From NCBI GenBank assembly GCA_030620995.1, contig JAUXIK010000004.1, forward strand, positions 18,447 to 82,446: a DNA stretch of 64,000 bases, written 5' to 3'. Source of the stretch: Candidatus Aegiribacteria sp. GTDB taxonomy: Bacteria > Fermentibacterota > Fermentibacteria > Fermentibacterales > JCC-6. How positions within the stretch are numbered: position 1 is the first letter of the stretch; every line of letters begins with the position of its first letter. The notes beneath the pieces are model-generated. The model did no database searches. It was not told where the DNA came from and saw only the letters and a program-made list of their open reading frames with translations. The position numbers and the translations under genes are program-made. Positions 14,779 through 46,990 of this stretch are shown one piece after another.

Positions 14779-14839
14779 GGGGACACGCAGCAGAGCGTCA
14801 TGTTCTTTGGGGACACGCACCAGAGCCTGCATGTCCCGC
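14779..14839. repeat. REP family 2 doublet (GGGGACACGCAGCAGAGCGTCATGTTCTTT + GGGGACACGCACCAGAGCCTGCATGTCCCGC)
   Basis: Near-identical doublets at 34865-34924 and, inverted, at 46931-46990. Each unit is an imperfect palindrome GGGGACAyGCA...TGCrTGTCCCC. Confidence 0.6.
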
Positions 14840-15565
14840 TGTTCTTTTATTGAGAAGCAGTTCAAGGTGTCTGAAAATTTTGCCTCTGGTAATTTCATTC
14901 TCAAAATCAGCGGGATGAATCGCAAACCTGACAGTCCGCATTCCGCCAAGGACAACTCTGGATGACGTAACCCAGAGATCAGCCATACATCTTTTCAGGC
15001 TACTGCCTCCCGCATAATTCACGACCGGTACTCTAAGATATGTCTGACCGGTCATCGGGTTCCATGTTCTCCATCTGCTTTCGGCATATGTAAATCCGGT
15101 TTCCGAAAGGGCTTTAAGTGTTCCCGTGCTGTATAACCATGCCGGCGCAGTAAAACCTGTTATATCAATTTCCAGAATTCGCTCAAGCTCGTCTTTCCCC
15201 TTTTTCAGCAATTCAGCAGCAGCCTGACGGTCAAGTCCCAGGAATTCTCCCTCTCCTCTTGTAAAGAACGCCGATCTTACTCGATCAACTGCTCCGTGAC
15301 TGCCGATACTGTCATAGTGATGGTATCCATGGAGAATCATCTCTGTTCCCTCAGCAGACAGGTCTCTGAGCCATTCACAGAATCCGGGGGAATCCTCAAG
15401 CGGCCATTTTCCCCAGAAGTCGGGAACTACCAGCATGCTGTACCGTGCCGCTCCCAGCTCAACCAGCGCATCGTGAATCCGCATGATGGTTTTTTCATAC
15501 CTGGGAGACACATCGTGCAGGGTAACATGAACCCATTTCTTTTCAGCCATCATTCCTCCCACCAT
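14798..15565 (-). CDS. DUF2334-type polysaccharide deacetylase-like protein
   Basis: N-terminal WVHVTLHDVSP motif typical of DUF2334. The C-terminal about 12 codons are encoded by the REP doublet. Confidence 0.6.
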   Translation of the reverse strand: MVGGMMAEKKWVHVTLHDVSPRYEKTIMRIHDALVELGAARYSMLVVPDFWGKWPLEDSPGFCEWLRDLSAEGTEMILHGYHHYDSIGSHGAVDRVRSAFFTRGEGEFLGLDRQAAAELLKKGKDELERILEIDITGFTAPAWLYSTGTLKALSETGFTYAESRWRTWNPMTGQTYLRVPVVNYAGGSSLKRCMADLWVTSSRVVLGGMRTVRFAIHPADFENEITRGKIFRHLELLLNKRTAGHAGSGACPQRT

Positions 15566-16755
15566 TTATCAGGGGGGATCAGGCTGTCCGGATCTCCATC
15601 TCTGAAAGCACTGATGATTCTCTCGTAGAAAACCTCTATCCTTCGGAACACGGAATCCCAGTCATGTCCGTCAAGAGCAAATCGTCTAAGGTAATCCGTT
15701 GTCTCTGAATCGGACATTGCCGCAGCGGATACGATAGCATTTGCGAGGCTTTCCGGACTGTTTGACCGGTAAGGAGGTACAAATCCCAGAGACGATGCCA
15801 TATCACCCGACGCGCCTGAATCGGGAAGAACCGGTGTTGTGCCGCATGCAATTGCCTCAAGACCTGCCAGACCGAACGTCTCTGATTGACCGAGTGACAG
15901 ATATACATCCGCTGAAGCCATTGCCTCAGCCACGGCTTCACGGTCTGGAAGGTACGGCAGACGACGCACTTCAGGATACTGCTTGATGAATTCCACCAGC
16001 CTGCCTTCAGCAGGGCCATGTCCTCCAATGACAAGTTTTATTGAAGCAGGATCTCTGAACAGTGGATATGCTTTCATCAGAAGATCAAGACCTTTTTCCC
16101 GGTGCAGCCTTGCGAGGTAAAGCACAAGTTTACTTCCGCTGTAAACTCCTAGAGCCCGCCGAAAATCATCAGAGCGTCTGGAGGGAGAGAACTGGTCTGT
16201 ACTAACGCCAAGAGGAGTAAGAAAGAGTCTCTTCACTCCTGAATCGTAAAGCTTCTGAAGTGTATACCTGCTGGCGGCAAAAACAGCTGTCATGCCGCCG
16301 TATGTTCTCCTGACATGGCTCCGGGCCAGCCTGGTCAGCGGCCCCGCGAGTCCGGGAAAATATTTACTCGCAAAAGGCTTAACGTAACTGTCAGGATAAT
16401 CCGAGTGGTAAAACCCTACGGTAGGGACAAAAGAGTTACCAAGGGCTTTCCTTGTATGAATCGGAAGCAGATAGGGGCTTCCGACCTCGACCAGATCAGG
16501 TTTGAAATCCCCGAAGGCAGAGGTCAGTCCCCCGCTGTCAACAATCAGGCGGTATCCTGAATTCAAAAGAGGAAGGGATTTCACTCTGTATACACTGGTA
16601 TTTCCATCTACAGTGCAATCAGTGTTTCTGCCGGGAATCACAAGAGCAATTGAGTGTTCGGGGCGGCCGGCGAAATACTCCAGCTTCCTGTCGTGGTAAA
16701 TCCTTATACCGCCGCCGGTTTCTGAATATAAACTGTTTGTATCGCAGATTCGCAC
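15550..16755 (-). CDS. Glycosyltransferase family 4 (GT-B, group 1)
   Basis: GT4 C-terminal domain motifs and the E...E region (SETFGLAGLEAIACGTPV). Confidence 0.8.
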   Translation of the reverse strand: MRICDTNSLYSETGGGIRIYHDRKLEYFAGRPEHSIALVIPGRNTDCTVDGNTSVYRVKSLPLLNSGYRLIVDSGGLTSAFGDFKPDLVEVGSPYLLPIHTRKALGNSFVPTVGFYHSDYPDSYVKPFASKYFPGLAGPLTRLARSHVRRTYGGMTAVFAASRYTLQKLYDSGVKRLFLTPLGVSTDQFSPSRRSDDFRRALGVYSGSKLVLYLARLHREKGLDLLMKAYPLFRDPASIKLVIGGHGPAEGRLVEFIKQYPEVRRLPYLPDREAVAEAMASADVYLSLGQSETFGLAGLEAIACGTTPVLPDSGASGDMASSLGFVPPYRSNSPESLANAIVSAAAMSDSETTDYLRRFALDGHDWDSVFRRIEVFYERIISAFRDGDPDSLIPPDKWWEE

Positions 16756-16774
16756 AGATAACCTTATTTACATC

Positions 16775-18793
16775 TCAGCGGATGCTGTCACCCGGCATGG
16801 AATCGCTTCCCGGTTCAAGCAGGAATACCTTCCCATCGCCGTCAGATGCCAGAACCATCCCGTTACTTTTTACACCCCTGATCGAAACAGGCTGCAGATT
16901 GACCAGAACTATGACTTTTCTGTTGAGAAGTTCCTCTTTCGAATAGTATGGTTTCATTCCTGCAACAAGCTGGCGGGTGTGATCACCCATATCTGCGATC
17001 AGCCTGTATAGTTTGTCAGCTCCTTCAATATCGTGAACTTCCGTTACCAGCCCGACTCTCATATCGAGCTTCGTGAATTCATCGTAAGTTATGCTTTCCT
17101 TGATCGAGATTCCCTGGGAGTTACTGTCATCGATCCCGCCGTCAGTTTCCCCTTTTACCATTACTTTCTCGAATCCTTTCTTCAGTTTGCTCAAAAGAAT
17201 CTCAGGAGTCCCGAGCTGATGCCCGGCCGGAAGATTTTCCCTGCCTGCGTCTTTCCAGAGCAAAGAGGTGTTTCCAAGCATTTCACCCGTTTTTTCAGAG
17301 GTGAAAGGTATGAACGGAGCAAGGAGAATCCTGAGTGAATCCGCAATCTGAAGACTGTAATAGATGGATGCAGCACACGCTTGAGGATCGCTTTTCGCTG
17401 TCTTCCAGGGTTGAGCCTGGTCAAAATACCTGTTTCCCTCGCGTGCTAGATCCATGATCCTGGAACATGCCGCCTTCAACTGGAAATTCCTTAGCAGTTT
17501 TTCCGTCTCATCCCGTGTTCTGACAGCTGATGCCATAAGTTCCTCTTCAACACTTCCTGCCCGGGCAGGTTCCGGTACTTTTCCATCGAAATACAGGTGA
17601 GCAAACTTTATTGTCCTGTTTATGAAATTTCCGAAAACATCGGCAAGTTCGTTGTTCTTGGATCTGAACTCACCCCAGGTAAAATCAGCATCCCGGTTTT
17701 CAGGAGCATTAATCGCCAGCGTGTATCTGAGTGGATCGGGAGGCAGGTTATCAAGGTAATCTTTCGTCCAGAGTGCCGTTCCCCGGCTTGTGGAGAATTT
17801 TTCCCCCTTGATGTTCAGATACTCATTAGCGGGAATATTCCAGGGAAGGACGAAATCTCCCAGACCATGAAGAACCGAAGGCTCGATGATAGCATGGAAA
17901 ACGATATTGTCCTTGCCTATGAACTGAACAAGGCGGCAATCAGGATTCTGCCAGTAATCTTTCCATCCGTCCGGATTCCCCTTCAAAGCGAAGTACTCCA
18001 TAGTGCTGCTGACATAACCCAGAAGGGCCTCGAACCAGACGTAGAGCACCTTTCCCTTAACACCTTCAAGAGGAACAGGCACACCCCAGTCAAGATCACG
18101 GGTTATAGCTCTTTCCCGGAGGCCTTTCTTGAGCCATCCGAGACAGTAGTTCTGCACATTGTTCTTCCAATCCCCGTGATTCCCAAGCCAGGTTTCCAGC
18201 CAGCCCTGGAACTGATCCAGTCTGAGGAACCATTGTCTTGTTTCTCTTGGCACAGGTGTGGCTCCGCATATGGCGCACACAGGGTCCACCAGATCCAGAG
18301 CATCAAGCCATGTGCCGCAGTCATCACACTGATCTCCTCGAGCCTTCATGGAATCGCACTCGGGACAGGTGCCGTTTACGTATCTGTCAGGAAGAAAGCG
18401 TTTGCAGCTCTCACAGTAGAACTGCTCCATGGGTTTTTCAGTGATGTACCCTTTTTCGAGAAGATCCAGAAATACCCCCTGTGTGAAGCGGTAATGTTCA
18501 GGCGTCTCCGTTCTCGAAAAATTGTCAAAGGATATTCCCAATCTATCAAAATCACTTTTGATCTCTTTGTAAAATATGTCAACCACTTCTCTGGGAGTTA
18601 TACCCATCTGTTCAGCTTTCAACGTTATCGGAACCCCGTGCTCGTCAGTGCCGCAAATGAAGATAACGTCCTCTTCACACATTCTCAGAAAACGAACATA
18701 GATATCCGCCGGTAGATATGCTCCGGCAATCTGACCAAGGTGAGTGGGGCCATTTGCATAGGGCAATGCGCTTGTTACGAGATATCGGGGCAT
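16775..18793 (-). CDS. metG: Methionine--tRNA ligase with a C-terminal EMAP-like tRNA-binding domain
   Basis: PYANGPTHLGQ (HIGH region), a KFSTSRG (KMSKS-like) motif and Zn-knuckle cysteines. The likely start is MPRYLVTS (rc ATG 18791-18793). Confidence 0.9.
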   Translation of the reverse strand: MPRYLVTSALPYANGPTHLGQIAGAYLPADIYVRFLRMCEEDVIFICGTDEHGVPITLKAEQMGITPREVVDIFYKEIKSDFDRLGISFDNFSRTETPEHYRFTQGVFLDLLEKGYITEKPMEQFYCESCKRFLPDRYVNGTCPECDSMKARGDQCDDCGTWLDALDLVDPVCAICGATPVPRETRQWFLRLDQFQGWLETWLGNHGDWKNNVQNYCLGWLKKGLRERAITRDLDWGVPVPLEGVKGKVLYVWFEALLGYVSSTMEYFALKGNPDGWKDYWQNPDCRLVQFIGKDNIVFHAIIEPSVLHGLGDFVLPWNIPANEYLNIKGEKFSTSRGTALWTKDYLDNLPPDPLRYTLAINAPENRDADFTWGEFRSKNNELADVFGNFINRTIKFAHLYFDGKVPEPARAGSVEEELMASAVRTRDETEKLLRNFQLKAACSRIMDLAREGNRYFDQAQPWKTAKSDPQACAASIYYSLQIADSLRILLAPFIPFTSEKTGEMLGNTSLLWKDAGRENLPAGHQLGTPEILLSKLKKGFEKVMVKGETDGGIDDSNSQGISIKESITYDEFTKLDMRVGLVTEVHDIEGADKLYRLIADMGDHTRQLVAGMKPYYSKEELLNRKVIVLVNLQPVSIRGVKSNGMVLASDGDGKVFLLEPGSDSMPGDSIR

Positions 18794-18806
18794 TTCTTCT
18801 CCATTT

Positions 18807-19733
18807 TCAAGGGGTTTCAGTCCCGCCCGGTGTATCGGAAGATTGCTTTTTAGAATCATACTCTTTTTTAAGAGGTTTTCTTTTTCTGTGGAACTTCTCT
18901 ATGTCCATTGTTCTCTCTTCATCGTCATCCATTAGAAGTGTTACTGTTTCAGTAAATATGTCAACTGAAGTAACCTCCCCTGTTCTTTTTCCTATTCTGG
19001 CTTTTGAACCGACCTGAGGGTACAGTTTTCTTGCTTTTCGGTAGAAATCCGACTCAAAATGCAGGCAGCACTTCAGACGGCCGCAGACTCCGGAAACCTT
19101 TGAGGGATTGGGAGTCAGGTCCTGTTCACGAACATCCCTCAGGGTAATGGATCTGAATTGTGAAAGGTAGGATGCACAGCAGAGTCTCTGGCCGCAGACT
19201 CCCAGACCGTCTTTCTGCCTTGCGTCGTCTCTTACCCCGATCTGCCGCATTTCGATCCTTGCGTGAAATTTGCTTGCAAGATCACGAACTAGTCCACGGA
19301 AATCCATCCGCTCATCAGCGGTGAAATATATCCTGATTTTCCGTCTATCCAGTTGAGCCTCGCAGCTTGAAAGCCGCATATCCTGTTTCCTCACCGAAAT
19401 TCTTTCCCTGCAGAACCTCAGTACTTTATTCTCGAAATCCCTGTTCTGCTCATAATTCGCGATATCGGTAAAGGTAGCCTTTCTAATAAACTTACCTGTA
19501 ATTGAAGCAACAGGATCCCTGGGATTGTACTTTGCAACAACTCGTCCGAGATCTTCTCCCCTGTCAACGGAAACAACTACCATTTCTCCTATCTCAACAG
19601 GAACTTCAGCCAGATTAATGAATGTATCCAGCCGTTTGGAACTGAATTGAAGCCTCAGAAGTTCGGTCGCTTCAAATCTGATTGATTCAAAATCATCAGT
19701 GTGATTATCGTTGTTGTTGCCATTATTGCTCAA
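18807..19733 (-). CDS. ricT: PSP1 C-terminal domain protein (RicT/YaaT family)
   Basis: PSP1 domain similarity plus the conserved holB-yaaT-metG gene order. Confidence 0.75.
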   Translation of the reverse strand: MSNNGNNNDNHTDDFESIRFEATELLRLQFSSKRLDTFINLAEVPVEIGEMVVVSVDRGEDLGRVVAKYNPRDPVASITGKFIRKATFTDIANYEQNRDFENKVLRFCRERISVRKQDMRLSSCEAQLDRRKIRIYFTADERMDFRGLVRDLASKFHARIEMRQIGVRDDARQKDGLGVCGQRLCCASYLSQFRSITLRDVREQDLTPNPSKVSGVCGRLKCCLHFESDFYRKARKLYPQVGSKARIGKRTGEVTSVDIFTETVTLLMDDDEERTMDIEKFHRKRKPLKKEYDSKKQSSDTPGGTETP

Positions 19734-20817: not shown

Positions 20818-20820
20818 TTT

Positions 20821-21936: not shown

Positions 21937-21974
21937 CGATTCCTCCAGTCAATTCTATGGATATCCGCCTGTTA

Positions 21975-23132: not shown

Positions 23133-23162
23133 GACTATTAAACCCTTCCAATCTGACAGCCG

Positions 23163-23280
23163 AAGAAAAAAAGCCGCCTGCCGGCGGCCTGAGGTTGCTA
23201 TCGGCTTTTTAGCACTTTTTTTTACGTGGTTGCAATAGACCTCAAATCATTCCACGAAGTTAAATGATACGAGTTATCCC
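23163..23280 (-). promoter_or_regulatory. Structured metK 5' leader: intrinsic terminator (GCCGCC-GGCA-GGCGGC + U7) 30 nt upstream of the start codon, preceded by a candidate SAM-II/V-like aptamer
   Basis: The terminator hairpin and U-run are read on the minus strand. The upstream segments UAUUGCAAC and GUGCUAAAAAGCC loosely resemble SAM-II conserved blocks; the class is not confirmed. Confidence 0.3.
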
Positions 23281-23452
23281 GACAAAGTCAATCATCAGGA
23301 ATAGTTGTTTATTCTCTGCATTTTCCATCTACCCGAAAGGATATCTAATCGTGAATGCCGGGCATTACTGTCATTGACAGATGAAAGCTACTGTTGGTTA
23401 TATTAATTTCAGATAAATAAAGTATATTATGTTAGTGAACTGCTTCAAAATT

Positions 23453-23493
23453 TGATTCCGGTGCGTTGGGAAATTAAGTTTTCAACTCATTAC
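23453..23493. repeat. 41-bp direct repeat copy A (TGATTCCGGTGCGTTGGGAAATTAAGTTTTCAACTCATTAC); its partner is at 27743-27783
   Basis: 38 of 41 bases identical to copy B. Together the copies bracket the 942-aa T9SS cargo gene and the beta-propeller gene. Confidence 0.55.
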
Positions 23494-23511
23494 CTGCATT
23501 CAAGCAAGTCC

Positions 23512-27520: not shown

Positions 27521-27742
27521 ATTTATCCTTCTTTCACGATATCAATAACTGGTGAAAATCAATTTCCTTATTGGAATATGTAATGATACAAAACTATCTA
27601 ATGCATGATAATGAACCCTATGTAAAATAATAAGGGGGGGGTAAAGCATGTCAATAACTCATTTAATTAATACTGCTAAAGGAACATTGATATTCAGAAA
27701 CCATACCCGAGGTATAGTGGCCAAATGAACCATGTCAGGAGG

Positions 27743-27783
27743 TGATTCCGGTGCGTTTGGAAATCAAGTTTTCAACTGATTAC
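27743..27783. repeat. 41-bp direct repeat copy B (TGATTCCGGTGCGTTTGGAAATCAAGTTTTCAACTGATTAC)
   Basis: See copy A; preceded by AGGAGGTG. Confidence 0.55.
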
Positions 27784-27919
27784 TGATAAGAAAATTAACT
27801 GATTCTCTTCTTCTTTTTCCTCTTCTTGCGCAAGTTCAGCAGGATCAGCTATCTCTTCAAGATTATCCTGATCGAATTCCTGACCGGTTTATTCGGATAT
27901 TTCCCGGTGTTCTCGCCTT

Positions 27920-29137: not shown

Positions 29138-29255
29138 TCTTCTCTCCCTTCAAATAACTTGCGGATCCCGCAAAAACTGAAGAATTAAGTACGCCCTGGT
29201 ACATCAATCTTCTTCCACTTACTGACTTCACAACATGGGAATACCGGCCGACCGG

Positions 29256-29537
29256 TTAACGATATGTCCTGCGACTGATGAAACACATGTCAACCACAGG
29301 CGATATTCCTGTTTCGAATATCTGTATCATTAAAATACGCAAGTACAATCCTGGGGGCAACTGGCCAACATTAGAAACCGGACCCTGGGGACTATCGGAA
29401 GAAATTTTCTGATGAAGAAACCTTTTACGAGAATTCCGACACTGATAATTCGTGAAATCTTCCAGCAGAATAACTCTGTCAGCACCGAACAGAATGAAAG
29501 GGAGCACCAGTAACATGATTATGTATATCGCACGCAT
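29256..29537 (-). CDS. Small hypothetical protein with an N-terminal hydrophobic segment
   Basis: ORF only; weak. Confidence 0.2.
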   Translation of the reverse strand: MRAIYIIMLLVLPFILFGADRVILLEDFTNYQCRNSRKRFLHQKISSDSPQGPVSNVGQLPPGLYLRILMIQIFETGISPVVDMCFISRRTYR

Positions 29538-29712
29538 TTTTATTCTCTTCTGAATGAAAATTACTATAAATTATTTTCTCTTTAATTTATACTAGTTTAG
29601 TAGGAAATAATAATTGGTTGAACAATTCCCTCCCATAGCCTGTTTTTTTTAATCTAGTATAATTTATACTTGTTGAAGACAGCACTTGTGTACCATTACA
29701 GTGTAGCATATA

Positions 29713-30633: not shown

Positions 30634-30659
30634 TCAACGCTAATTTGTAAAGAAATCAG

Positions 30660-30826: not shown

Positions 30827-30880
30827 CCCAATCAGATCTTGAGTTTGTTCATCCGGGAATAATATCCGTTTCTGTCTGCG

Positions 30881-34508: not shown

Positions 34509-34864
34509 AGTTTCCTCTCCTGTTCTCTTTCTCCCGAAGGGAGTAAGTTTCTGTTAATAAATCTTTTCCGCCATTCGGCTTTCAATATTTGTTTCGGGAT
34601 TACACCCGCCTGCTAAAACTTCCTGAAAGGCTTCTTCTCTTTTATGTCACCGTTCAGGTTTCTTTTTTCCCAAATACAGTGGAGCAATCAACATGCCAGA
34701 AATTGGAAGAGTGCTATGCGGTTGCACATCAGATATTTACAATTCATCCAGACAATCGTTATCAACTCCTCCACAAAATATACGTGCTATTGTGGCACAT
34801 CCCTTGGGGGTATGGTGATATAGTATATTAAACGGTTAATATGGTCGCGGGAGGCAAGTTTTTT

Positions 34865-34924
34865 GGGGACACGCACCAGAGCGTCGTGCTTTTTGGGGAC
34901 ACGCACCAGAGCGTGCATGTCCCC
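34865..34924. repeat. REP family 2 doublet (GGGGACACGCACCAGAGCGTCGTGCTTTTT + GGGGACACGCACCAGAGCGTGCATGTCCCC), 12 bp upstream of the uvrA start
   Basis: Same family as 14779 and 46931. Confidence 0.6.
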
Positions 34925-34936
34925 GGGAGAATTAAT

Positions 34937-37768
34937 ATGGACAGGATAATCGTAAGAGGAGCCAGAGAGCACAACCTGAAAAACATTACGGTGGAATTTC
35001 CCCGTAATCAATTCGTGGTCCTTACCGGAGTATCCGGTTCAGGTAAGAGTTCATTCGCTTTCGACACGCTCTATGCTGAAGGACAGCGCCGTTACGTTGA
35101 GTCGCTTTCAGCTTACGCAAGACAATTCCTGGGACAGCTTGAAAAACCCCTTTACGAAAGTATCGAGGGATTATCACCCGCGATATCAATCGAACAGAAA
35201 ACCGTAAGCCATAATCCAAGGTCAACAGTAGGTACGGTAACTGAAATTTCCGATTATATGAGAGTTCTCTTCGCTCGAACGGGAATTCCTCACTGCCCTG
35301 AATGCGGCAGGGAGGTTTCAAGTCAGTCAACTCAGCAGATGCTCGACAGAATTCTGCAGATTCCTGCCGGAACCAGACTTCTGATCACAGCTCCGCTCAT
35401 TCGCAACAGAAAGGGAGTGCATGCTGATCTCTTCCCGGAATTGAGAAGAAAAGGATACGTTCGCGTGATGATCAACGGCAAGATACACAGTCTTGATGAA
35501 ACCCTGGCTCTCAATGCCAGGAAAAAGAATGATGTGTACCTGGTAGTTGACAGAATTATCTGTGGAGAAGGCAAAGACGCCTCGGGCAGACTCATGGACT
35601 CTGTGGAAACAGCTCTCAGTGAGGGAAACGGTATCATTTCGGTGATTAACGCCGATACGAATGAAGAGACGCTCATGAGCGAACACAGTGCCTGTGCCTG
35701 GTGCGGTATCAGCATGCCGGAACTTACTCCACAGCTCTTCAGCTTCAATAATCCCGCGGGTATGTGTGAGGAATGTTCGGGTCTCGGATACGAGATGAAG
35801 GCCGACCCGCTTCTGGTTATCCCGAGGAAAGCTCTTTCCATCAAGGACGGGGCTGTGGCACCCTGGGGAATTCCATCAGGCCAGGGAAATTATCTTGTCA
35901 AAGCTCTGTCCAAAGCACTGGATTTCAATATTGGCGCTCCGTGGAAAAGCCTGTCCGAAGACACACAGGACGCTATTCTTTACGGCGCTGGAGATAAGAA
36001 GATCAGTATTTCCTGGTCTTCAAGTAACAGCAGCGGAACCTGGGAAACAAAATGGGAAGGCGTGATACCGAGGCTGGAGCGCCGTCACCATTCTACCAGC
36101 AGCCAGGCAGCGAGGAAGCACTACGAGAAATTCTTCAACAGGACACACTGTTCTGCCTGCGAGGGCACAAGGTTAAGAAGAGAGGCCAGGGCTGTAACTG
36201 TCGGGGATAAAGGGATTCATGAACTGAATTCGATGACGGTCAAGGAGCTTCACAGTTTCTTTATTAATCTTGAACTCGACGACTGGCGGTTGAAGGTAGC
36301 GGGCGAACTTCTGAAGGAGATCAGGGGTCGTCTTGAATTTCTGATTAACGTCGGTCTTCACTACCTTACACTTGACAGGACAGCGCCATCCCTCTCAGGG
36401 GGAGAAGCCCAGAGAATAAGGCTTGCCAGCCAGATCGGCAGCGGTCTCACAGGAGTTCTTTATGTCCTTGATGAACCTACTATCGGCCTTCACCAGAGAG
36501 ACAATCTGAGGCTGCTGTCCACTCTCGACGAACTCAGGGATCTCGGTAACACGGTTCTGGTGGTGGAACATGACCATGAAACGATACTTCATGCCGATCA
36601 TATAATTGATTTCGGACCGGGAGCAGGTATTCATGGAGGCAATATTGTAGCAGCTGGAACCACTTTGGATATAATAGCCTCACCCGATTCGCTTACCGGG
36701 GATTACCTGTCCGGCCGCAAATTCATCCACAGAACGGTGCCCGTAGTATCAGGCATGGGAAAGAACTCCATCATCCTGAGAAAAGCCAGTCTCCATAATC
36801 TGAAGGATGTTACTCTTGAGGTTCCACTGGGAAGATTCATCTGCGTAACCGGTGTATCCGGATCAGGAAAGAGCTCCCTTATAAGCCAGACACTCTACCC
36901 CGCCCTTTCAGCGGTAACAGGGGGATCTTCAAAGGAGCGCCCCGGACCTTACGGATCTCTGGAGGGTGAGAAGAAAATCGATAAGGTGATAAACATATCA
37001 CAGGATCCCATCGGCAGAACTCCCAGATCGAATCCGGCTACTTACACCAAGGTTTTTGATCACATCAGAGAGCTTTTCGCAAAAACCTCCCAGGCAAAGA
37101 TCAGGGGATACAAACCCGGTAGATTCAGCTTCAATGTCAAAGGTGGAAGGTGCGAGGAGTGCAGGGGAGCCGGTGTAATTAAAATTGAAATGCACTTCCT
37201 GGCGGATGTTTTTGTTGAATGCAAAGAGTGCAGGGGTCATAGATTCAACAGAGAAACTCTCAAAATCACTTACAGGGGACTCAATATCTCAGAAGTTCTG
37301 GATCTCACCGTCAGCGAAGCTCTGAACCATTTCGAAAGGGTTCCGCAGGTGTACCGGATACTGAAAGTACTCGATGACGTGGGTCTTGGTTACCTGCAGC
37401 TGGGCCAGCAGGCCACGACTCTGTCCGGGGGAGAAGCCCAGAGAATCAAACTGGCGAGAGAGCTTGCCCGGCCCGGGTCATCTCATACCGTCTACATACT
37501 GGATGAACCGACTACAGGACTTCATTTCCACGATGTCAAGAAACTGCTGATGGTTCTGGGGCGGCTCGTAAAAGCGGGTAATACTGTCATCGTAATTGAA
37601 CACAACCTTGATGTTATCAAGAATGCCGGCTGGATTATCGATCTGGGTCCGGACGGAGGGGACGCCGGAGGAAGCATAATCGCCACCGGCACACCTGAAG
37701 AGCTGGCCGCGAATAAGAATTCATATACCGGACATTTCCTGAAGACAATTCTGGAAGCTGAAGCATGA
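34937..37768 (+). CDS. uvrA: Excinuclease ABC subunit A
   Basis: Two ABC ATPase modules (GVSGSGKSS twice, LSGGE signatures) and zinc-finger cysteines. The start is at MDRIIVRGAREHNL; the 32-aa extension on the track is REP-encoded. Confidence 0.95.
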   Translation: MDRIIVRGAREHNLKNITVEFPRNQFVVLTGVSGSGKSSFAFDTLYAEGQRRYVESLSAYARQFLGQLEKPLYESIEGLSPAISIEQKTVSHNPRSTVGTVTEISDYMRVLFARTGIPHCPECGREVSSQSTQQMLDRILQIPAGTRLLITAPLIRNRKGVHADLFPELRRKGYVRVMINGKIHSLDETLALNARKKNDVYLVVDRIICGEGKDASGRLMDSVETALSEGNGIISVINADTNEETLMSEHSACAWCGISMPELTPQLFSFNNPAGMCEECSGLGYEMKADPLLVIPRKALSIKDGAVAPWGIPSGQGNYLVKALSKALDFNIGAPWKSLSEDTQDAILYGAGDKKISISWSSSNSSGTWETKWEGVIPRLERRHHSTSSQAARKHYEKFFNRTHCSACEGTRLRREARAVTVGDKGIHELNSMTVKELHSFFINLELDDWRLKVAGELLKEIRGRLEFLINVGLHYLTLDRTAPSLSGGEAQRIRLASQIGSGLTGVLYVLDEPTIGLHQRDNLRLLSTLDELRDLGNTVLVVEHDHETILHADHIIDFGPGAGIHGGNIVAAGTTLDIIASPDSLTGDYLSGRKFIHRTVPVVSGMGKNSIILRKASLHNLKDVTLEVPLGRFICVTGVSGSGKSSLISQTLYPALSAVTGGSSKERPGPYGSLEGEKKIDKVINISQDPIGRTPRSNPATYTKVFDHIRELFAKTSQAKIRGYKPGRFSFNVKGGRCEECRGAGVIKIEMHFLADVFVECKECRGHRFNRETLKITYRGLNISEVLDLTVSEALNHFERVPQVYRILKVLDDVGLGYLQLGQQATTLSGGEAQRIKLARELARPGSSHTVYILDEPTTGLHFHDVKKLLMVLGRLVKAGNTVIVIEHNLDVIKNAGWIIDLGPDGGDAGGSIIATGTPEELAANKNSYTGHFLKTILEAEA

Positions 37769-37772
37769 CCGG

Positions 37773-40853: not shown

Positions 40854-41024
40854 ATCCCGTCAATAAAGCAGATTTATTACATAATTGCACAGTTCTCCTT
40901 TCAGGTCAACTCCTAACACAGGCTAAGGGCGCTGACACTTGTTCATGCGCTCCACCGGGGTTATCTTTCTGCCTCTTCTGAATATGTGCCGTGACAATAC
41001 TTACTCTTGCGAAAGGACATTCAA

Positions 41025-43433
41025 GTGACGTTACCGAAACGTTACAATGCCGGGGAAGCTGAACCCAGATGGCAGGATTTCTGGAACAATCGAGGAATAT
41101 TCAAATTTGACAGTAATTCGAAAAAACCTGTTTACTCAATTGATACTCCTCCGCCCACCGTTTCCGGGATGATTCACATGGGTCATGTATTCAGCTACGT
41201 CCAGGCGGAAGTTCTGGCAAGGTATCATCGAATGAAGGGCCAGGAGGTCTTCTACCCCTTTTGTTTTGATGACAACGGCCTGCCAAGTGAGAGATTCACT
41301 GAGCAGCAGAAAAAAGTGCGTGCTCAGGATATGACGAGAAGCGAATTTGTGAAGTTATGTCTCGAAGTAACCAAAGACGCTGAGGATACGTTCAGAGATC
41401 TCTGGACAAGATTCGGATTCTCGTGTGACTGGGATCTTCTCTATACGACAATAGACCCGTGGGTTCAGAGAATAAGCCAGCGGTCCTTTCTTGATCTTAA
41501 TAGAAAGGGATTTGTCTACAGAAAAGAAGCTCCGACATTGTGGTGCCCTGAATGCCGGACAGCGGTAGCCCAGGCCGAAACGGAAGACAGTGAGTTTGGC
41601 TCGGTCTTTCATGATCTTGAATTCCCCCTTGCGGATGGTTCCGGAAATATCCCCATAGCCACCACAAGACCGGAACTGCTCCCGGCATGTGTTGCGGTTT
41701 TCGTACACCCTTCGGATGAAAGATGGAGTCATCTGATCGGCAGGAAAGCCGCTATTCCAGTCTTTGGTCATGAAGTTGAGATTATGTCGGATTTCAAGGT
41801 TGACAGGGATAAGGGCAGCGGGATAGTCATGTGCTGCACATTCGGTGATACAACTGATATCGAGTGGTGGCAGGAATATGATCTGGATCTCAGAATAGTA
41901 CTGGATAACAGGGGGCACATGAATGCCGCCGCAGGCTTCCTGGAAGGCATGTACTGGAAGAAAGCCAGAAAAGTTCTTGTACAGAAACTCGATGATGAAG
42001 GATTCAGAAAAGGCGGAGAAGATATTCAGCATGTAATCAATGTGCATGAAAGATGCGGAACTCCGCTTGAATTCCTGCTTAATATGCAGTGGTTTGTGCG
42101 TATTCTTGATAAGAAGGATGAACTCATCAGACGAGGCAATGAAGTTAACTGGTATCCCCCTTATTTCAAGGTTCGCTATGAGCACTGGGTGGAAAACCTC
42201 AAATGGGACTGGTGCATAAGCCGTCAGCGCTTCTATGGAGTACCTTTCCCGGTGTGGTTCTGCGAGGATTGCGGTGAACCTTTCTTCGCCAAGGAGGAAA
42301 ATCTTCCTGTTGATCCTCTGGTGGATACACCGGAGGGACCATGCCCTTCGTGCGGAGGTTCAGACTTCAGACCCGAATCAGATGTCATGGATACGTGGGC
42401 AACGAGTTCTCTCACCCCTCAGATCAACGCAAAGTGGGGGGAAGAGGATGAGATGGAAGGATTGCTTCCCATGAGCCTCAGGCCTCAGGCGCACGATATC
42501 ATCAGGACATGGACATTCTATACAATAACGAAGGCGCATCTGCATTCAGACAGCATTCCCTGGAAGGATATAATGATCAGCGGTCACGCTCTGAACCCCT
42601 CAAGGGAAAAGATGTCCAAGAGCAAGGGAAATATCGCTGGTGATCCGCTTGTCGCTCTTGATCGATACTCGGCTGACGAGCTGCGCTACTGGTCATGCAG
42701 CTCGAAACTGGGCAACGATGTTCTCTTCAGCGAAGATATTCTTGGAGACGGCAGACGCCTTGTCACAAAACTCTGGAACGCTACAAGATTCGCTTCTTCC
42801 AGACTTGAGGATTTCGACACTGAACTGGAACCCGATCTGAAACCCTTTGACAGATGGATTCTCTCCAGATTCACCAGAACCGCGAAAGACGCTACATCCG
42901 GTATGAATAAGTATGAGTTTTCCGTCTGCATCCGCGATGGCGAGCATTTCTTCTGGAAAGCGCTTTGTGACAATTATCTGGAAATAGTAAAAAAACGTCT
43001 TTACTCAGACGATAACCCGGATGAAAAGCATTCCGCCCAGTACGCCCTCTACCATGTTCTTTACGGCTCACTGAGGCTTTTCGCTCCCGTTCTTGTACAT
43101 ATCACCGAGGAATTGTATCAGGCTGTTTTCAGGGAGAACGAAGGACATGAAAGCATTCATATAGCTCCCTGGCCGGAACCGGATTACATGGATGAAAAGG
43201 CTCTGAAATACGGTGATATGACACTTCAGATCATTGAAGAAGCCAGAAAATTCAAGAGTGAAGCAAATCTAAGCATGGCGGCACAACTCAGTTCAATTGA
43301 GATCAGCGCCCAACCTGAAGATCTGATTGAACTGAAAACCTTCGAAGATGATCTTCTGAATGTCACAAGAGCGGAAACTATCGGCTGGAGCGAAGGTCAG
43401 AGTCTTTCTGTCAGAGTTGTTAACTCTGAATAA
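41025..43433 (+). CDS. valS: Valine--tRNA ligase (short form, about 800 aa)
   Basis: PPPTVSGMIHMGH (HIGH) and KMSKSKGN motifs with a CP1 editing-domain insertion. The probable GTG start is at 41025 after AAAGGA; the track's TTG at 41007 is also possible. Confidence 0.65.
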   Translation: MTLPKRYNAGEAEPRWQDFWNNRGIFKFDSNSKKPVYSIDTPPPTVSGMIHMGHVFSYVQAEVLARYHRMKGQEVFYPFCFDDNGLPSERFTEQQKKVRAQDMTRSEFVKLCLEVTKDAEDTFRDLWTRFGFSCDWDLLYTTIDPWVQRISQRSFLDLNRKGFVYRKEAPTLWCPECRTAVAQAETEDSEFGSVFHDLEFPLADGSGNIPIATTRPELLPACVAVFVHPSDERWSHLIGRKAAIPVFGHEVEIMSDFKVDRDKGSGIVMCCTFGDTTDIEWWQEYDLDLRIVLDNRGHMNAAAGFLEGMYWKKARKVLVQKLDDEGFRKGGEDIQHVINVHERCGTPLEFLLNMQWFVRILDKKDELIRRGNEVNWYPPYFKVRYEHWVENLKWDWCISRQRFYGVPFPVWFCEDCGEPFFAKEENLPVDPLVDTPEGPCPSCGGSDFRPESDVMDTWATSSLTPQINAKWGEEDEMEGLLPMSLRPQAHDIIRTWTFYTITKAHLHSDSIPWKDIMISGHALNPSREKMSKSKGNIAGDPLVALDRYSADELRYWSCSSKLGNDVLFSEDILGDGRRLVTKLWNATRFASSRLEDFDTELEPDLKPFDRWILSRFTRTAKDATSGMNKYEFSVCIRDGEHFFWKALCDNYLEIVKKRLYSDDNPDEKHSAQYALYHVLYGSLRLFAPVLVHITEELYQAVFRENEGHESIHIAPWPEPDYMDEKALKYGDMTLQIIEEARKFKSEANLSMAAQLSSIEISAQPEDLIELKTFEDDLLNVTRAETIGWSEGQSLSVRVVNSE

Positions 43434-43437
43434 CCTT

Positions 43438-44256
43438 TTAAAATGCAACCTTGTATAGAGTGAACAGCCCCAGCGCTACTGTTGCTATACCCACAATTAC
43501 AGTAAAATTGCTGATTCTTATTTTCTTTACTGTCCAGGCACAGAATGGAACCGATATGAACGAGCCGATAACAAGCGGCAGAGCAATGCTCCAGTTGATA
43601 TCAGCCCCCAGAATAAGATAAGCAGTCACACCGACAAGACATGTAAAACTTTCCGCAAAAGATGTTATTGCGATAGAACTTTTACTCTTAACTCCCGACA
43701 GAATCTGCCCTGATGTGACAAGGGGCCCGTATCCTCCCCCCGAGAGCCCCTTATTGAACGCGGCAATAATTCCAAGACCCAGTATTTTCTTCCAGGAGAA
43801 CCTGTGAACGGTATTTCTCCTGACAAGAATCAGGATTCCCATAATAAGCACTATGGAACCGATAATTATCCTCAGATAGGCTTTCGGGATATGGAACGCC
43901 AGAATTACCGCCGCGACCGCGCCAATAACACTGCATGCGGCCAGCACAAACGCTATCTTTGAATCGTTTGACTTCGGAATGTACCCGAGGATTTTCATCT
44001 TCTTCACTATCCGGTGATCTCTGTCTCTTCTGAAGTTGAAATCAACATTGCCCATCCTGTGATGCATGAATGCCGCAAACCCGCCCGTAAGCAGTTCTGA
44101 CAGAAGTATCGCAGGTACTACGGCAAGAGGTTCGTAACCCATAAGAAGAAGAATCGGAGTCATGGTTGTTCCGTAGCCCATGCCAAGAGTTGAATCAACA
44201 TACTCGCAGATGAATGCCATGAAGAACAGTAAGCCAATTATCGGAACCGGATCCAT
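43438..44256 (-). CDS. TauE/SafE (TSUP, DUF81) family membrane transporter
   Basis: An 8-TM profile with duplicated GGG..G motifs typical of TSUP. Confidence 0.75.
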   Translation of the reverse strand: MDPVPIIGLLFFMAFICEYVDSTLGMGYGTTMTPILLLMGYEPLAVVPAILLSELLTGGFAAFMHHRMGNVDFNFRRDRDHRIVKKMKILGYIPKSNDSKIAFVLAACSVIGAVAAVILAFHIPKAYLRIIIGSIVLIMGILILVRRNTVHRFSWKKILGLGIIAAFNKGLSGGGYGPLVTSGQILSGVKSKSSIAITSFAESFTCLVGVTAYLILGADINWSIALPLVIGSFISVPFCAWTVKKIRISNFTVIVGIATVALGLFTLYKVAF

Positions 44257-44277
44257 AAGCTATCTCTCTCTTATCCG

Positions 44278-44502
44278 CTATCGCTCCTCTGTCCGTTTTT
44301 GCTGCAGCTTGTCAGCTTTTGACAGATAGAGCCGGCTATCTTTGAAGAGTATCCACCGAATCCTGTCGCCATCCAGCAATTCCAGCTGTTCCGCGACTTC
44401 CTTTGGAACGGTGACCCGCCTTCTGCTTTTTCTGATTGTAACAGAGGTTTCACCAGCATATTCAACATCATCAAGATTGATTTCCACAATAATTCCCTCC
44501 AA
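44278..44502 (-). CDS. AbrB/MazE/SpoVT-type swapped-hairpin DNA-binding protein (74 aa)
   Basis: VTIRKSRRRVTVPKEVAEQLELLDGDRI resembles the AbrB-N fold. Confidence 0.45.
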   Translation of the reverse strand: MEGIIVEINLDDVEYAGETSVTIRKSRRRVTVPKEVAEQLELLDGDRIRWILFKDSRLYLSKADKLQQKRTEER

Positions 44503-44634
44503 GTCAGACCAATATACTTTGGATTAATACCAAAGCCAATTATTTCAGTCAGAAAAAAAAATTCGGATTGTCATAAAGGATAAAATGACTTATGAATTAT
44601 GGATAAATTTATATTCTTTGGCAGAGGAGAAAAA

Positions 44635-45267
44635 ATGGAATATCCTGTTATTCACAATCCAGGCTCAATCGAACTGCTTCTGGATAAACTCCACGGCACC
44701 AAATCCCCCAGAGTGGTTGATTACGACTTTCTCACCACTCTCGGATTCAAGAGGGAAGTTGATGAATCACTCCTCATGCTTCTCGGATTTCTTGGTTTCA
44801 TCGATGATAACAATCAGCCGACCATCCTGTGGGAAAAGTCTCATGATCCTGATAAAGCAAAGGTTCTGCTCGGTAAAGCAGTAAAAGCTGCATACAGCAG
44901 CCTCTTCAAGGCTCATCCTGAGGCTATAACTGAAGAAAACTCTGTTCTGATGGAGTTTTTCAGATCCAGCTCAGGTGCATCCGATCCTGATGCTGCATAT
45001 ATGATTCTTTCTTTTAAAGTCCTCTGTGATCTATCAGAGTTTGACGAGAAACCTCCAATTGCGCAGAAAAAGCCTGAAAAAAAACCAAAAGCGATTAAAA
45101 AGACTCCGGCCGCGGAACTTCCGGAAGCAAAATCAGTTACAGATAAAGTAGCTTCAACGGATTCCTCACCGGTTATCAGATTGTCGATAAATATTGATAT
45201 TGATGAATCCGACCCTGAACTGAGGGAACTGACTCTGAAACTCATCAGAAAGCAGTTAGAACTATAA
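44635..45267 (+). CDS. Hypothetical protein with a lysine/proline-rich low-complexity middle segment
   Basis: ORF with the probable start MEYPVIHNPGS; no recognised domain. Confidence 0.35.
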   Translation: MEYPVIHNPGSIELLLDKLHGTKSPRVVDYDFLTTLGFKREVDESLLMLLGFLGFIDDNNQPTILWEKSHDPDKAKVLLGKAVKAAYSSLFKAHPEAITEENSVLMEFFRSSSGASDPDAAYMILSFKVLCDLSEFDEKPPIAQKKPEKKPKAIKKTPAAELPEAKSVTDKVASTDSSPVIRLSINIDIDESDPELRELTLKLIRKQLEL

Positions 45268-45297
45268 ATCAGTGTTTTACCAATAGATAAAAGTACC

Positions 45298-46923
45298 TTG
45301 AAAGGAGCAATTTTTGCTATGAAGAATTCGAGATGGATTATACCGCTGATCATGCTTACAGCAGTAATCCTTGCAACCTCTTGCGGAGATGATGAAACTC
45401 CGACCGGACCGGGCACATATCCTACAGCGTCAATCCTCAGCGCATCGACAGGAGCAAGTAATTCAGTATCCACTTCCTGGACCATGTGTCCTGATGATAA
45501 TTTTTCCGAATACAGCCTTTACAGGTCCCTGACTGAAGGGATTTCCGCCAATCCGCCGGACAGCCCTGTAAGAGCCGCCAGCAATGCGGCGGATACAACC
45601 TTTACAGATACAGGCCTGGAGTGGAGCACGGACTACTTTTACGCTGTCCGGACAAAGAATACCGACAATCTGTACTCCTGGAGTAACGAAGTATCAGTGA
45701 CCACTCCTGACTCCGGCAGTACCGGTGACTATCTGACCTGCTACCAGATCCAGGGACAGCAGTCATCCTCACCGTATGTTGACCAGATCGTTTCCGTAAC
45801 AGGAATTGTAACTACAGGCGGGGACGAACTCTACTATTCTGCGGGTCCTGTCGCGGTGCTGAGTGATCCTGATGGAGGTCCCTGGACGGGACTGGTTCTC
45901 TACGGTGACGATATCACTTCTCTTGCCAGGGGTGACAGTATACTTATCACCGGTACCGTTCAGGAGTACTACGGTCTGACTGAACTGGGTAACATTTCCT
46001 CTGTTGAGATTGTTTCTACCGGGAACGAGGTGCCACCAGCCACTGCGGTTTCCACTGGGGACATATCCAATTCTACTGATCCAGAGCAGTACGAATCCGT
46101 TCTTTGCACTATCAGCGATGCGATTGTAACCGAAGTCCAGGGATACGGCCAGTTCCTTGCCGATGACGGCTCAGGCGAATGCATTGTGGACGACATGGGC
46201 ACTTATTCGTACAGCCCTGCTGTTGGTGATACGATCATCACCGGAACCGGGATACTATGGTACTCCTGGGACGAATGGAAACTCGAACCCAGGGATGACA
46301 ACGATCTTATTACTTCCGGAGGCGGAGGCGGTGATACTTACACATGCTACGAGATCCAGGGACAGCAGTCGGAATCACCCTTTGATGGACAGACTGTCAG
46401 TGTCACCGGGATCATAACCGCTGACCCTGATGATTATACCGCTACATCTTCAACCTACTCCGCCATGGCAGATGCCGCCGGAGGACCCTGGAGCGGTCTG
46501 CTACTATATGGCGACGATCTCGAAGGGCTTCAGAGAGGTGACAGTGTAACGGTAACCGGAGTTGTGGATGAGTACTACGAAATGACTGAGGTTAAGTACC
46601 CGATATCCTACGTAGTACACTCGAGCGGACATGCTCTTCCGGATCCAATTCAGTTCTCTACCGGTGATCTCTCACCTTCTCTTGACCTTGAGCAATGGGA
46701 ATCCGTATTTGTGACCGTATCCGATGTCGATGTAACACAGATTGGTCTACCTTATTACACATGGGCTGTCGATGACGGAAGCGGAGAGTGCTACGCCGGC
46801 ACAATGGGTGACTTCACCTACGATCCGGCTGTAGGCGATAACCTGTCAAGCATGACAGGATTGCTCTGGTACTCCTACGATTTCAAGATTCAACCCAGGG
46901 ACGACAACGATATAGTCCAATAA
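45298..46923 (+). CDS. Lipoprotein with an FN3-like N-terminal region and two tandem domains of about 195 aa
   Basis: Lipobox (ILATSCG). The two internal repeats both begin D(Y/T)(L/Y)TCY(Q/E)IQGQQS and end KL/IEPRDDNDLI/IQPRDDNDIV. Confidence 0.5.
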   Translation: MKGAIFAMKNSRWIIPLIMLTAVILATSCGDDETPTGPGTYPTASILSASTGASNSVSTSWTMCPDDNFSEYSLYRSLTEGISANPPDSPVRAASNAADTTFTDTGLEWSTDYFYAVRTKNTDNLYSWSNEVSVTTPDSGSTGDYLTCYQIQGQQSSSPYVDQIVSVTGIVTTGGDELYYSAGPVAVLSDPDGGPWTGLVLYGDDITSLARGDSILITGTVQEYYGLTELGNISSVEIVSTGNEVPPATAVSTGDISNSTDPEQYESVLCTISDAIVTEVQGYGQFLADDGSGECIVDDMGTYSYSPAVGDTIITGTGILWYSWDEWKLEPRDDNDLITSGGGGGDTYTCYEIQGQQSESPFDGQTVSVTGIITADPDDYTATSSTYSAMADAAGGPWSGLLLYGDDLEGLQRGDSVTVTGVVDEYYEMTEVKYPISYVVHSSGHALPDPIQFSTGDLSPSLDLEQWESVFVTVSDVDVTQIGLPYYTWAVDDGSGECYAGTMGDFTYDPAVGDNLSSMTGLLWYSYDFKIQPRDDNDIVQ

Positions 46924-46930
46924 CTATAAA

Positions 46931-46990
46931 GGGGACATGCAGGCTCTGCTGCGTGTCCCCAAAAAACCTGACGCTCTGCTGCATGTCCCT
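46931..46990. repeat. REP family 2 doublet in inverted orientation (GGGGACATGCAGGCTCTGCTGCGTGTCCCC + AAAAAACCTGACGCTCTGCTGCATGTCCC)
   Basis: Reverse complement of the doublets at 14779 and 34865. Confidence 0.6.

Follow-up and report, generated by a model that had tools for sequence, protein, structure and literature searches.

A previously undescribed hairpin repeat family of uncultured Candidatus Aegiribacteria and its plausible link to a resident Y1 transposase

Repeats and genes in the window

The window analyzed here, a 64-kb stretch of a metagenome contig, carries a Y1 HUH transposase gene bounded by terminal inverted repeats (family 1) and a family of short hairpin repeats (family 2) at three loci. 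The relevant features are as follows.

5264-5390, no strand: gene-less inverted pair of family-1 repeats, REPIN/MITE-like, with 27-nt arms and a 73-nt spacer; folds as a long hairpin
12402-12446, plus: left family-1 terminal inverted repeat of the Y1 gene (TAGGGGTCAAACCTTGTATTTTAACATT…)
12452-13309, minus: Y1 HUH transposase with C-terminal HTH, TIRYT / TnpA-Y1 subclass 2.1-like; candidate mobilizing enzyme
13315-13359, minus: right family-1 terminal inverted repeat of the Y1 gene
~14702-14731, plus: decayed family-2 unit (…GGAGAGTGCATGTCCG); the orthologue L043 has an intact copy
14779-14808, plus: family-2 5' half-unit GGGGACACGCAGCAGAGCGTCATGTTCTTT; its complement gives the TGA stop of the DUF2334 ORF
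14809-14838, plus: family-2 full hairpin GGGGACACGCACCAGAGCCTGCATGTCCCG; the complementary strand codes for GHAGSGACP in the DUF2334 tail
34865-34894, plus: family-2 5' half-unit between the divergently transcribed dnaK and uvrA
34895-34924, plus: family-2 full hairpin of consensus sequence; GGGAG follows at 34925-34929
43422-43442, no strand: empty family-2 site; the orthologous convergent spacer is filled in others
46931-46960, minus: family-2 full hairpin; the plus strand is the G.U version
46961-46990, minus: family-2 5' half-unit AGGGACATGCAGCAGAGCGTCAGGTTTTTT (minus strand)
62135-62145, minus: remnant GGGGACATGCA, the 5' arm of a diverged unit that has lost its 3' arm

A 60-nt composite, in which a half-unit is followed by one complete hairpin, is common to all three loci, and the three composites (58 to 62 nt) have pairwise identities of 87 to 93%. 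With at most one mismatch, the motif GGGGACAYGCA occurs 11 times versus 1.58 expected, a count reached by 0 of 100 shuffles. A sequence-only reading of this DNA had described palindrome doublets at the three loci; all three loci are real, but only the second unit of each is palindromic, the first having no 3' arm. The remnant that it placed near 62135 is present, and can be refined to the 5' arm of a unit orthologous to a second, diverged hairpin (GGTGACACGCAACGTAGTGCATGTCAC) in L060 and L028. The hairpin at 46931-46960 starts 7 nt past the stop codon (46921-46923) of a 541-aa ORF, and the spacers orthologous to the empty site at 43422-43442 hold one family-2 unit each in L083, L120, and L113.

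A conserved hairpin that is not a terminator

The full family-2 unit is a 30-nt hairpin, GGGGACACGCA-S-CAGAGC-S-TGCATGTCCCC, whose 12-bp stem, interrupted by one C.A mismatch, carries a 6-nt loop; its foot is GGGG, paired with CCCC. The mismatch is kept, 35 of 40 distinct variants having C.A at stem pair 8-23, and reads G.U on the opposite strand. The half-unit comprises the 5' arm and loop, with a degenerate T-rich tail replacing the 3' arm, and the best-conserved stretch of the unit is the 18-nt GGGGACACGCASCAGAGC, which recurs every ~3 helical turns. Compensatory changes maintain the hairpin. At stem pair 12-19, 20 of the 40 distinct variants have C-G and 16 have G-C (28 versus 28 over all copies), pair 9-22 is G-C, A-U, or C-G, and the covariation score of the stem, 0.155 versus 0.069 when shuffled, was reached by 0 of 500 shuffles. 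Single units are predicted to fold as RNA hairpins with a ΔG of −24.1 kcal/mol on the G.U strand and −18.8 kcal/mol on the opposite strand (z = −5 to −6 versus shuffles).

Several known identities were considered and rejected. A T-run precedes the hairpin on the plus strand and an A-run follows it on the minus strand; because no U-run lies directly 3' of it on either strand, it is not an intrinsic (Rho-independent) terminator, and a terminator scan called no family-2 unit. The window shows no excess of canonical hairpin-plus-U terminators over shuffles (17 versus 18.4, 10 versus 15.6, and 17 versus 17.6). We rejected a CRISPR-like array because the units are 0 to 15 nt apart, without spacers, at scattered sites; paired DNA uptake sequences because the loop is conserved like the arms and the spacing is fixed; and an integron attC because core housekeeping genes flank the sites and the unit measures just 30 nt. 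A known RNA family was rejected for lack of an Rfam match: at gathering score, the sole Rfam 15 match in the whole window is SAM-II, away from the repeats, and positions 34780-34960 gave nothing at E ≤ 1.

Distribution and turnover across the lineage

In six Candidatus Aegiribacteria/Fermentibacteria MAGs, our scan of species-representative genomes recovered at least 95 family-2 arrays (164 units), which occupy ~50 independent sites; at least 23 to 28 arrays fall in each of three MAGs, and 3 to 4 in the 64-kb window. The loci were found via the repeat itself, and these densities are lower bounds. The copies are nearly all intergenic, and many are dispersed through a genome, as is characteristic of REPs. 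Since the family is enriched across the lineage, the alternative that the motifs are unique to the three sites fails, and the dispersed REP family proposed in the sequence-only reading consists of genuine palindromic REP-like repeats at dozens of sites. Among other taxa in the scan, 33 matches were listed, none with a 3' arm; these are chance matches. When a loop-free palindrome pattern was run against metagenomes, 17 of 18 matches were unrelated palindromes or terminators, L002 being the sole relative. Viral contigs gave no family-2 match and hence no sign of a phage origin.

Each array has the form [half-unit]n plus hairpin, head-to-tail, and only its last unit keeps the 3' arm. Arrays contain 1 to 8 units, and counts vary between orthologous sites: the uvrA leaders of three species hold 2, 5, and 7 units, while the DUF2334 3' end holds 1 to 3 in scanned orthologues and ~8 in L126. 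The stem subtype is unlike in 45 of 82 orthologous species pairs, and both filled and empty sites are found among orthologues. Units are thus gained, lost, and replaced at fixed sites. Most sites are common to several species and so do not demonstrate recent transposition, and slippage and gene conversion alone could suffice to explain array change. Neither the two filled/empty comparisons nor the flank listings of the units revealed a clean target-site duplication; the linkers of the composites are the sole recurring flank motifs. Units occur singly or in direct head-to-tail arrays and never as the inverted pairs that define REPINs.

Position relative to genes

In its usual placement, family 2 lies shortly past a stop codon and in G.U orientation. 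Between the hairpin and the stop codon of the gene that is transcribed toward it, the median gap is 13 nt, and co-directional site groups are antisense in 17 cases and sense in 5 (binomial p=0.017; crude ORF calls); about one-fifth of sites have the sense orientation or belong to 5' leaders. Judging from orientation and folding, the post-stop hairpins probably act as 3'-end or stability elements of the upstream mRNA.

Two loci in the window depart from simple intergenic placement. The DUF2334 ORF (14798-15565, minus) runs through the full hairpin and terminates within the half-unit, and the proposal that the first doublet encodes its last codons holds in the window and four orthologues, all five of which carry the repeat-encoded tail GHAGSGACPQRT* (~13 aa and the stop codon). 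At uvrA, where an array is present upstream in three species, the ATG lies at 34937, 12 nt downstream of the hairpin end at 34924, exactly as the sequence-only reading had it. PDB UvrA structures have N-termini that align to residue 33 of the 975-aa ORF, which confirms as spurious the 32-aa extension that the sequence-only reading had called so. The GGGAGA that it took for the end of the repeat, by contrast, falls just beyond the 30-nt unit, and the post-hairpin sequence is unlike in the two orthologous uvrA leaders (GGGATGGAATT; GTGAACGGTGAATGGGATT), so that the repeat may or may not supply the RBS. In the minimum free energy fold, GGGA pairs with the U-run that precedes the hairpin, through three G.U pairs and one A-U pair. 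We do not claim a FourU-like sequestration of the uvrA Shine-Dalgarno sequence, because the pairing has this make-up and the orthologous leaders do not conserve it.

The Y1 transposase and its relation to the hairpin

The Y1 protein (285 aa) matches Y1_Tnp at residues 13-119 and HTH_3, HTH_23, and Crp-like models at residues 233-281, so that it is a Y1 HUH protein with a C-terminal HTH, longer than a RAYT or IS200 TnpA, as expected of a TIRYT. Its gene is single-copy, conserved, and syntenic in all relatives. The flanking family-1 arms are 45 nt long, 91% complementary, and begin GGGGTCAA, matching 7 of 8 positions of GGGG[AT][CG]A[CG], the TIRYT inverted-repeat consensus (PMC3733652, PMC6006769); the long terminal inverted repeats of a TIRtron are therefore present. 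Terminal repeats of homologues in other phyla begin GGGGTCAG, and the TIRYT repeat head is conserved for ~16 nt across phyla (GGGGTCAGGTCTTGAA). Family 1 flanks the Y1 gene in the window, L087, L092, L096, L125, L126, and L127. Family 2 flanks it in no genome examined, its nearest array being ~1.4 kb off, and so does not form a REPtron, in which the same repeat flanks a RAYT gene.

The family-2 foot GGGGACAC nonetheless fits GGGG[AT][CG]A[CG] at 8 of 8 positions, although only the first 7 to 8 nt are shared with the canonical TIR. Each of the 11 family-1b arms seen, from 8 loci and 7 independent sites, has a family-2 unit within 41 nt, two arm-hairpin-arm composites are complete, and at 7 independent sites a TIRYT-type inverted-repeat pair encloses the hairpin. 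The composite linker motifs occur beside solo units in 7/46 and 13/46 site groups versus backgrounds of 0.8% and 0.5%. The sequence-only reading had suggested, from a shared GGGG(T/A)C head, that one RAYT serves two REP families or that a second RAYT lies elsewhere. The shared head survives as a fit to the TIRYT consensus, with family-1b arms solely beside family 2, but only family 1 borders the Y1 gene, no second Y1 gene was seen in ~0.5 Mb of related loci, and the Y1 protein scores below the NCBIfam RAYT cut-off (65.7 versus 80 bits). A mobilization link between family 2 and the Y1 transposase is plausible from these sequence relationships.

Discussion

Family 2 is a previously undescribed hairpin repeat family of uncultured Candidatus Aegiribacteria (FCB group), and it is new to the REP/TIR-repeat kind. 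REP/BIME elements and REPINs with their RAYTs are known from E. coli and Pseudomonas (PMC3116915, PMC3479197, PMC3733652). Like REPs, family 2 consists of 20- to 40-nt imperfect palindromes that fold as stem-loops with a conserved stem mismatch, its many extragenic copies mostly follow genes and separate co-directional or convergent ones, its clusters vary in copy number, and the same genome holds a single-copy, vertically inherited Y1 transposase. Unlike REPs, it has no GT[AG]G, its GGGG foot being itself paired with no GTAG adjacent; its units run head-to-tail, which is rare for REPs, rather than forming head-head or tail-tail dimers; and most array members are truncated. The absence of family 2 from the flanks of the Y1 gene and the RAYT score of the Y1 protein further set it apart from REP/RAYT systems. 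The CGTC-tagged REPs of Bacteroidetes/Chlorobi, among others, have 8- to 9-bp stems, 4- to 5-nt loops, an unpaired CGTC tag, and a CCA tail (PMC3733652); these too are small palindromes in FCB-group bacteria with no repeat-flanked transposase, but family 2 has none of those stem and loop sizes, tag, or tail.

TIRtrons (Di Nocera 2013, PMC3733652; Quentin 2018, PMC6006769) resemble the system in the window in the long Y1 protein, the C-terminal HTH, and the 45-nt inverted repeats, and TIRYT repeats resemble family 2 in the consensus that its foot fits exactly and in the TIR pairs that enclose its units. Self-complementary TIR repeats have been reported in S. maltophilia, and no REP-like hairpins had previously been found for TnpA-Y1 subclass 2.1 (PMC3733652, PMC6006769). 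Family 2 differs from the TIRtron repeats in being a self-contained 30-nt hairpin, not the TIR of the Y1 gene, with similarity ending after ~8 nt. The BOX elements of Streptococcus pneumoniae are small, modular, intergenic repeats that form RNA structures and contain one module whose tandem number varies between sites and strains. Family 2 resembles them in this build, but sequence and module set are unrelated, BOX is not known to have an associated Y1 transposase, and the host belongs to another phylum.

The reading toward which we lean, by a modest degree, is that family 2 is a lineage-specific, REP-like, non-autonomous repeat with a 30-nt hairpin core, processed by the Y1 enzyme and having a role as RNA. 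The hairpin would at first have been the apical module of miniature elements bounded by TIRs, kin of the window's TIRtron, and the resident single-copy Y1 HUH transposase would process it as single-stranded DNA via the shared GGGGWSAS foot. Arrays may grow by local partial tandem duplication or by re-insertion beside an existing head. Copies would persist mainly just past stops, in the orientation yielding a perfect 12-bp G.U-containing RNA stem; at uvrA, the hairpin would instead sit in the 5' leader, adjoining the Shine-Dalgarno sequence.

The orientation bias, the ~13-nt distance past stops, the perfect G.U stem on the transcribed strand, the retention of sites between species, and the lack of enrichment of canonical terminators in the window are all compatible with a host-selected RNA hairpin, a 3'-UTR stabilizer or U-less terminator spread and homogenized by recombination, gene conversion, and slippage, to which the Y1 gene is close by coincidence. 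We consider this unlikely: the hairpin has no U-run after it on either strand, about one-fifth of sites are sense or in 5' leaders, the filled/empty polymorphism and ~50 unrelated sites require some insertion mechanism, and nesting within TIRYT-type inverted repeats is left unexplained. Less probable again is that another enzyme, a second RAYT/TIRYT or an unrelated transposase, mobilizes family 2 while family 1 belongs to the window's Y1 gene. A RAYT usually has a repeat family of its own (PMC6006769), it is family 1 and not family 2 that borders the Y1 gene, and the two families differ past the 8-nt foot; yet tblastn with the Y1 protein over ~0.5 Mb of related loci found no second Y1 gene, only syntenic orthologues, and the nearest protein-database homologues are all the same syntenic gene. 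Finally, the strong conservation of the 18-nt stretch, spaced ~3 helical turns apart, and the retention of the uvrA array in three species could be read as iterated operator- or iteron-like sites at 28- to 30-nt spacing for the Y1 HTH or a nucleoid protein, regulating, for example, uvrA. That most copies are single and follow the stops of unrelated genes, that compensatory changes indicate a folded single strand rather than duplex recognition, and that copy number at uvrA ranges from 2 to 7 make this very improbable.

A bolder version of the Y1-processed repeat, which we regard as rather unlikely, holds that the hairpin is the minimal natural substrate of TIRYTs (TnpA-Y1 subclass 2.1), the enzyme reading a GGGGWSAS-footed single-stranded DNA stem in TIRs, MITE arms, and hairpin alike. 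If so, the 45-nt gene-flanking TIRs, the 27-nt MITE arms, and the 30-nt hairpin would be alternative forms of one TIRYT-read stem, the head-to-tail, 3'-truncated arrays would be the footprint of TIRYT strand-transfer chemistry, and a defined DNA substrate would be at hand for probing TIRYT function.

With family 2, a REP-like system is on record for an uncultured lineage of the FCB group. The repeat has practical consequences for annotation, since it causes false ORF extensions (32 aa at uvrA) and repeat-encoded tails (DUF2334), and its hypervariable arrays disrupt or confuse MAG assemblies in this lineage. The variable-number arrays could help to tell apart Aegiribacteria strains of anaerobic digesters and sediments, and the 30-nt hairpin, with its GGGGACAC foot and fixed C.A mismatch, is a concrete candidate substrate for the widespread, uncharacterized TIRYT domesticated Y1 transposases.

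Composition of the family-2 repeat

Family 2, the GGGGACAYGCA-type hairpin repeat of about 30 nt, occupies three loci in the window that match the description given by the sequence-only reading; all are composites of 60 nt, with pairwise identities of 87 to 93%.

14779-14838, locus 1, at the 3' end of the DUF2334 gene
34865-34924, locus 2, in the uvrA leader
46931-46990 (-), locus 3
~14702-14731, decayed fourth family-2 unit

Allowing one mismatch at most, the window contains 11 occurrences of GGGGACAYGCA where 1.58 would be expected. The loci had been described as doublets of palindromes; when the copies are read in register the two 30-nt units stand, but only the second is a complete hairpin. 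The first 30 nt (e.g., GGGGACACGCACCAGAGCGTCGTGCTTTTT) form a half-unit that retains the 5' arm and loop and has a degenerate, T-rich end, while the second 30 nt, GGGGACACGCACCAGAGCGTGCATGTCCCC, fold into a 12-bp stem with one C.A mismatch (pair 8-23) and the 6-nt loop CAGAGC. Comparison with related loci identifies the remnant suspected near 62135 as the 5' arm of a diverged family-2 unit.

Distribution across genomes

The window comes from a JGI metagenome contig of 66.9 kb, so family 2 was counted in other genomes. At least 105 stretches matched when species-representative genomes were scanned with GGGACAYGCASCAGAGCST. Among the matches listed, 70 stretches come from six Candidatus Aegiribacteria/Fermentibacteria MAGs (DAOWJX01, JAUVEU01, CBDVBK01, JAUWJE01, DAOWNO01, and GCA_023131525.1), and because these six contain at least 95 arrays and at least 164 units, the refuting outcome named in the sequence-only reading, a motif confined to three sites, did not arise. 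Other taxa supplied 33 single matches among those listed, approximately the chance expectation, and none of the 33 had a 3' arm. The metagenome collection yielded one true relative, L002 (LGVF01267722.1), and the viral contigs scanned yielded no match; Rfam had no match to family 2, and our literature search found no paper on repeats of Candidatus Aegiribacteria, a lineage of the FCB group. At L002 920-1000 the duplication of the unit has a period of 33 nt and interrupts the 3' arm, unlike the array types of the MAGs.

Array architecture and turnover

Family-2 arrays follow a common plan, in which a series of 5' half-units of 28 to 30 nt is closed by one full hairpin. Single-unit arrays number 54 of the 95 among the matches listed; two units are found in 24 arrays, three in 10, four in 5, five in one, and seven in one. 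Some arrays carry added 3' partial units, and at two related loci (L092 and L126) full units are repeated with a 15-nt linker, giving a 45-nt period.

Comparison of flanks placed the 95 arrays among the matches listed into 50 site groups. The orthologous sites of all three window loci are occupied in other species with differing unit numbers: the uvrA leader array has 2, 5, or 7 units, and at the DUF2334 3' end the count is 1 to 3 among scanned orthologues but about 8 in one genome with a 95% identical Y1 protein. Of 82 orthologous species pairs, 45 differ in the stem subtype of the terminal unit. Every subtype switch requires both partners of a pair to change, so family-2 units are being replaced and not merely inherited. 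Three genomes have a family-2 unit at a site that is empty in the window (~43422-43442), and one orthologous site is filled in related loci L095 and L099 and empty in L091. No clean target duplication was seen in the filled/empty comparisons or flank listings. One MAG has two copies, and another a single copy, of a conserved block some 200 nt long (L095 7474-7700; L099 183-410, inside an ORF call; L091 2790-3000), with or without an inserted family-2 unit.

Stem covariation and folding

We gathered 105 full units for stem analysis. Two subtypes are co-dominant at pair 12-19, G..C and C..G, with 28 copies each, and in minor subtypes pair 9-22 is altered to A-U or C-G. Across 40 distinct variants the covariation score was 0.155, versus 0.069 in shuffles, a value reached by none of 500 shuffles, and the score collapsed when pairing partners were slid. 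Of the 40 variants, 35 have C.A at pair 8-23, which is G.U on the opposite strand; in RNA folding the G.U strand is the more stable, at -24.1 versus -18.8 kcal/mol.

Placement relative to genes

Placement rests on crude ORF calls. On those calls, among the matches listed, 17 co-directional site groups carried the unit in antisense orientation relative to their flanking genes and 5 carried it in sense (p=0.017), with a further 14 groups convergent and 5 divergent. Where a gene is transcribed toward the full hairpin, its stop codon lies a median of 13 nt away (among the matches listed), and its transcript bears the G.U version. This after-stop rule holds for window loci 1 and 3; locus 2, in the uvrA leader and in sense orientation, is a minority placement. 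No U-run follows the family-2 hairpin on either strand, and canonical terminator-like sites are not commoner in the window than in shuffles. The window's only strong hairpin-plus-T-run terminator (23171-23190, -) follows a SAM-II (long-loop) riboswitch (23199-23261, -) upstream of the S-adenosylmethionine synthetase gene.

The suggestion that the repeat encodes the DUF2334 C-terminus is borne out in the window and four orthologues: the ORF runs through the hairpin in all 5 sequences, producing tails such as GHAGSGACPQRT, with the stop codon supplied by half-unit tail or linker. Likewise, the 32-aa uvrA extension is a repeat artefact, as had been proposed; PDB UvrA sequences begin to align at residue 33 of the long ORF, which places the uvrA start at the ATG at 34937. 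The sequence-only reading took the repeat's terminal GGGAGA to double as the uvrA ribosome-binding site, which may hold; GGGAG comes after the unit and is not part of the 30-nt core, and the sequence following the hairpin differs between orthologous uvrA leaders. A palindrome in the dnaK-uvrA divergent intergenic region (ACGTGCTATTGTGGCACAT, 34782-34800), conserved in the orthologous region of related locus L041, could be a regulator binding site.

Other direct repeats in the window

A 31-nt direct repeat, TTTCTTACAGTATAGAATAAGATATTCAGAA, occurs in three copies at 55755-55922 with 39- and 98-nt spacing; it overlaps the window's best sigma-70-like promoter match and may be an operator or promoter repeat. 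The 58-nt direct repeat at 23436-23493 and 27726-27783 (81% identity, 4.3 kb apart) is probably the common end of two paralogous genes.

Possible relationship to the resident Y1 transposase

12452-13309 (-), Y1 gene, HUH transposase, Y1_Tnp plus C-terminal HTH
12402-12446 and 13315-13359, family-1 inverted repeats at its ends

The Y1 protein scored 65.7 bits against the NCBIfam model for REP-associated Y1 transposases (RAYTs), under the cut-off of 80. The gene and its family-1 flanks match the TIRtron/TIRYT class (PMC3733652), which has terminal inverted repeats (TIRs), and TnpA-Y1 subclass 2.1, in which no REP-like hairpins were found (PMC6006769). More than 3000 homologues occur across phyla. 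Within the lineage, in the related loci searched, the gene is single-copy and syntenic, adjoining peptidase M50 down to 60% identity, and family-1 inverted repeats always border it in the window and its relatives; it has the appearance of a domesticated gene passed on vertically. TIRYT-type Y1 genes of distant phyla share a near-constant inverted-repeat head, GGGGTCA(A/G)(A/G)(C/T)CT... (12402-13359 here; related loci L125, L128, L129, and L130). At 5264-5390 two family-1 arms of 27 nt, complementary at 96% and separated by a 73-nt spacer, enclose no gene; this pair is a REPIN/MITE-like derivative of TIRtron ends.

The family-2 foot, GGGGACAC, agrees with the published TIR consensus GGGG[AT][CG]A[CG] at 8 of 8 positions; the TIRs of homologues in other phyla read GGGGTCAGGTCTTG..., and family 2 has just the foot in common with them. 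The 526 kb of related loci contain 11 copies of a family-1 variant, 1b (GGGGCCGGGCCTAACATCTAAACATT), at 8 loci and 7 independent sites; each has a family-2 unit no more than 41 nt away, and two complete arm-hairpin-arm composites combine 1b with family 2. The composite linkers (5' WTGC; 3' G...ATGYT) border solo family-2 units too, far over background.

Family 2 is genuine and belongs to the REP/TIR-repeat kind as a member not described before. Three features are unusual beside canonical REPs: head-to-tail arrays with truncated units, a paired GGGG foot, and nesting inside TIRYT-type repeats. For its biology, the inferences with the best support are that the resident Y1 enzyme may mobilise it and that it may act as a 3' hairpin of mRNAs.
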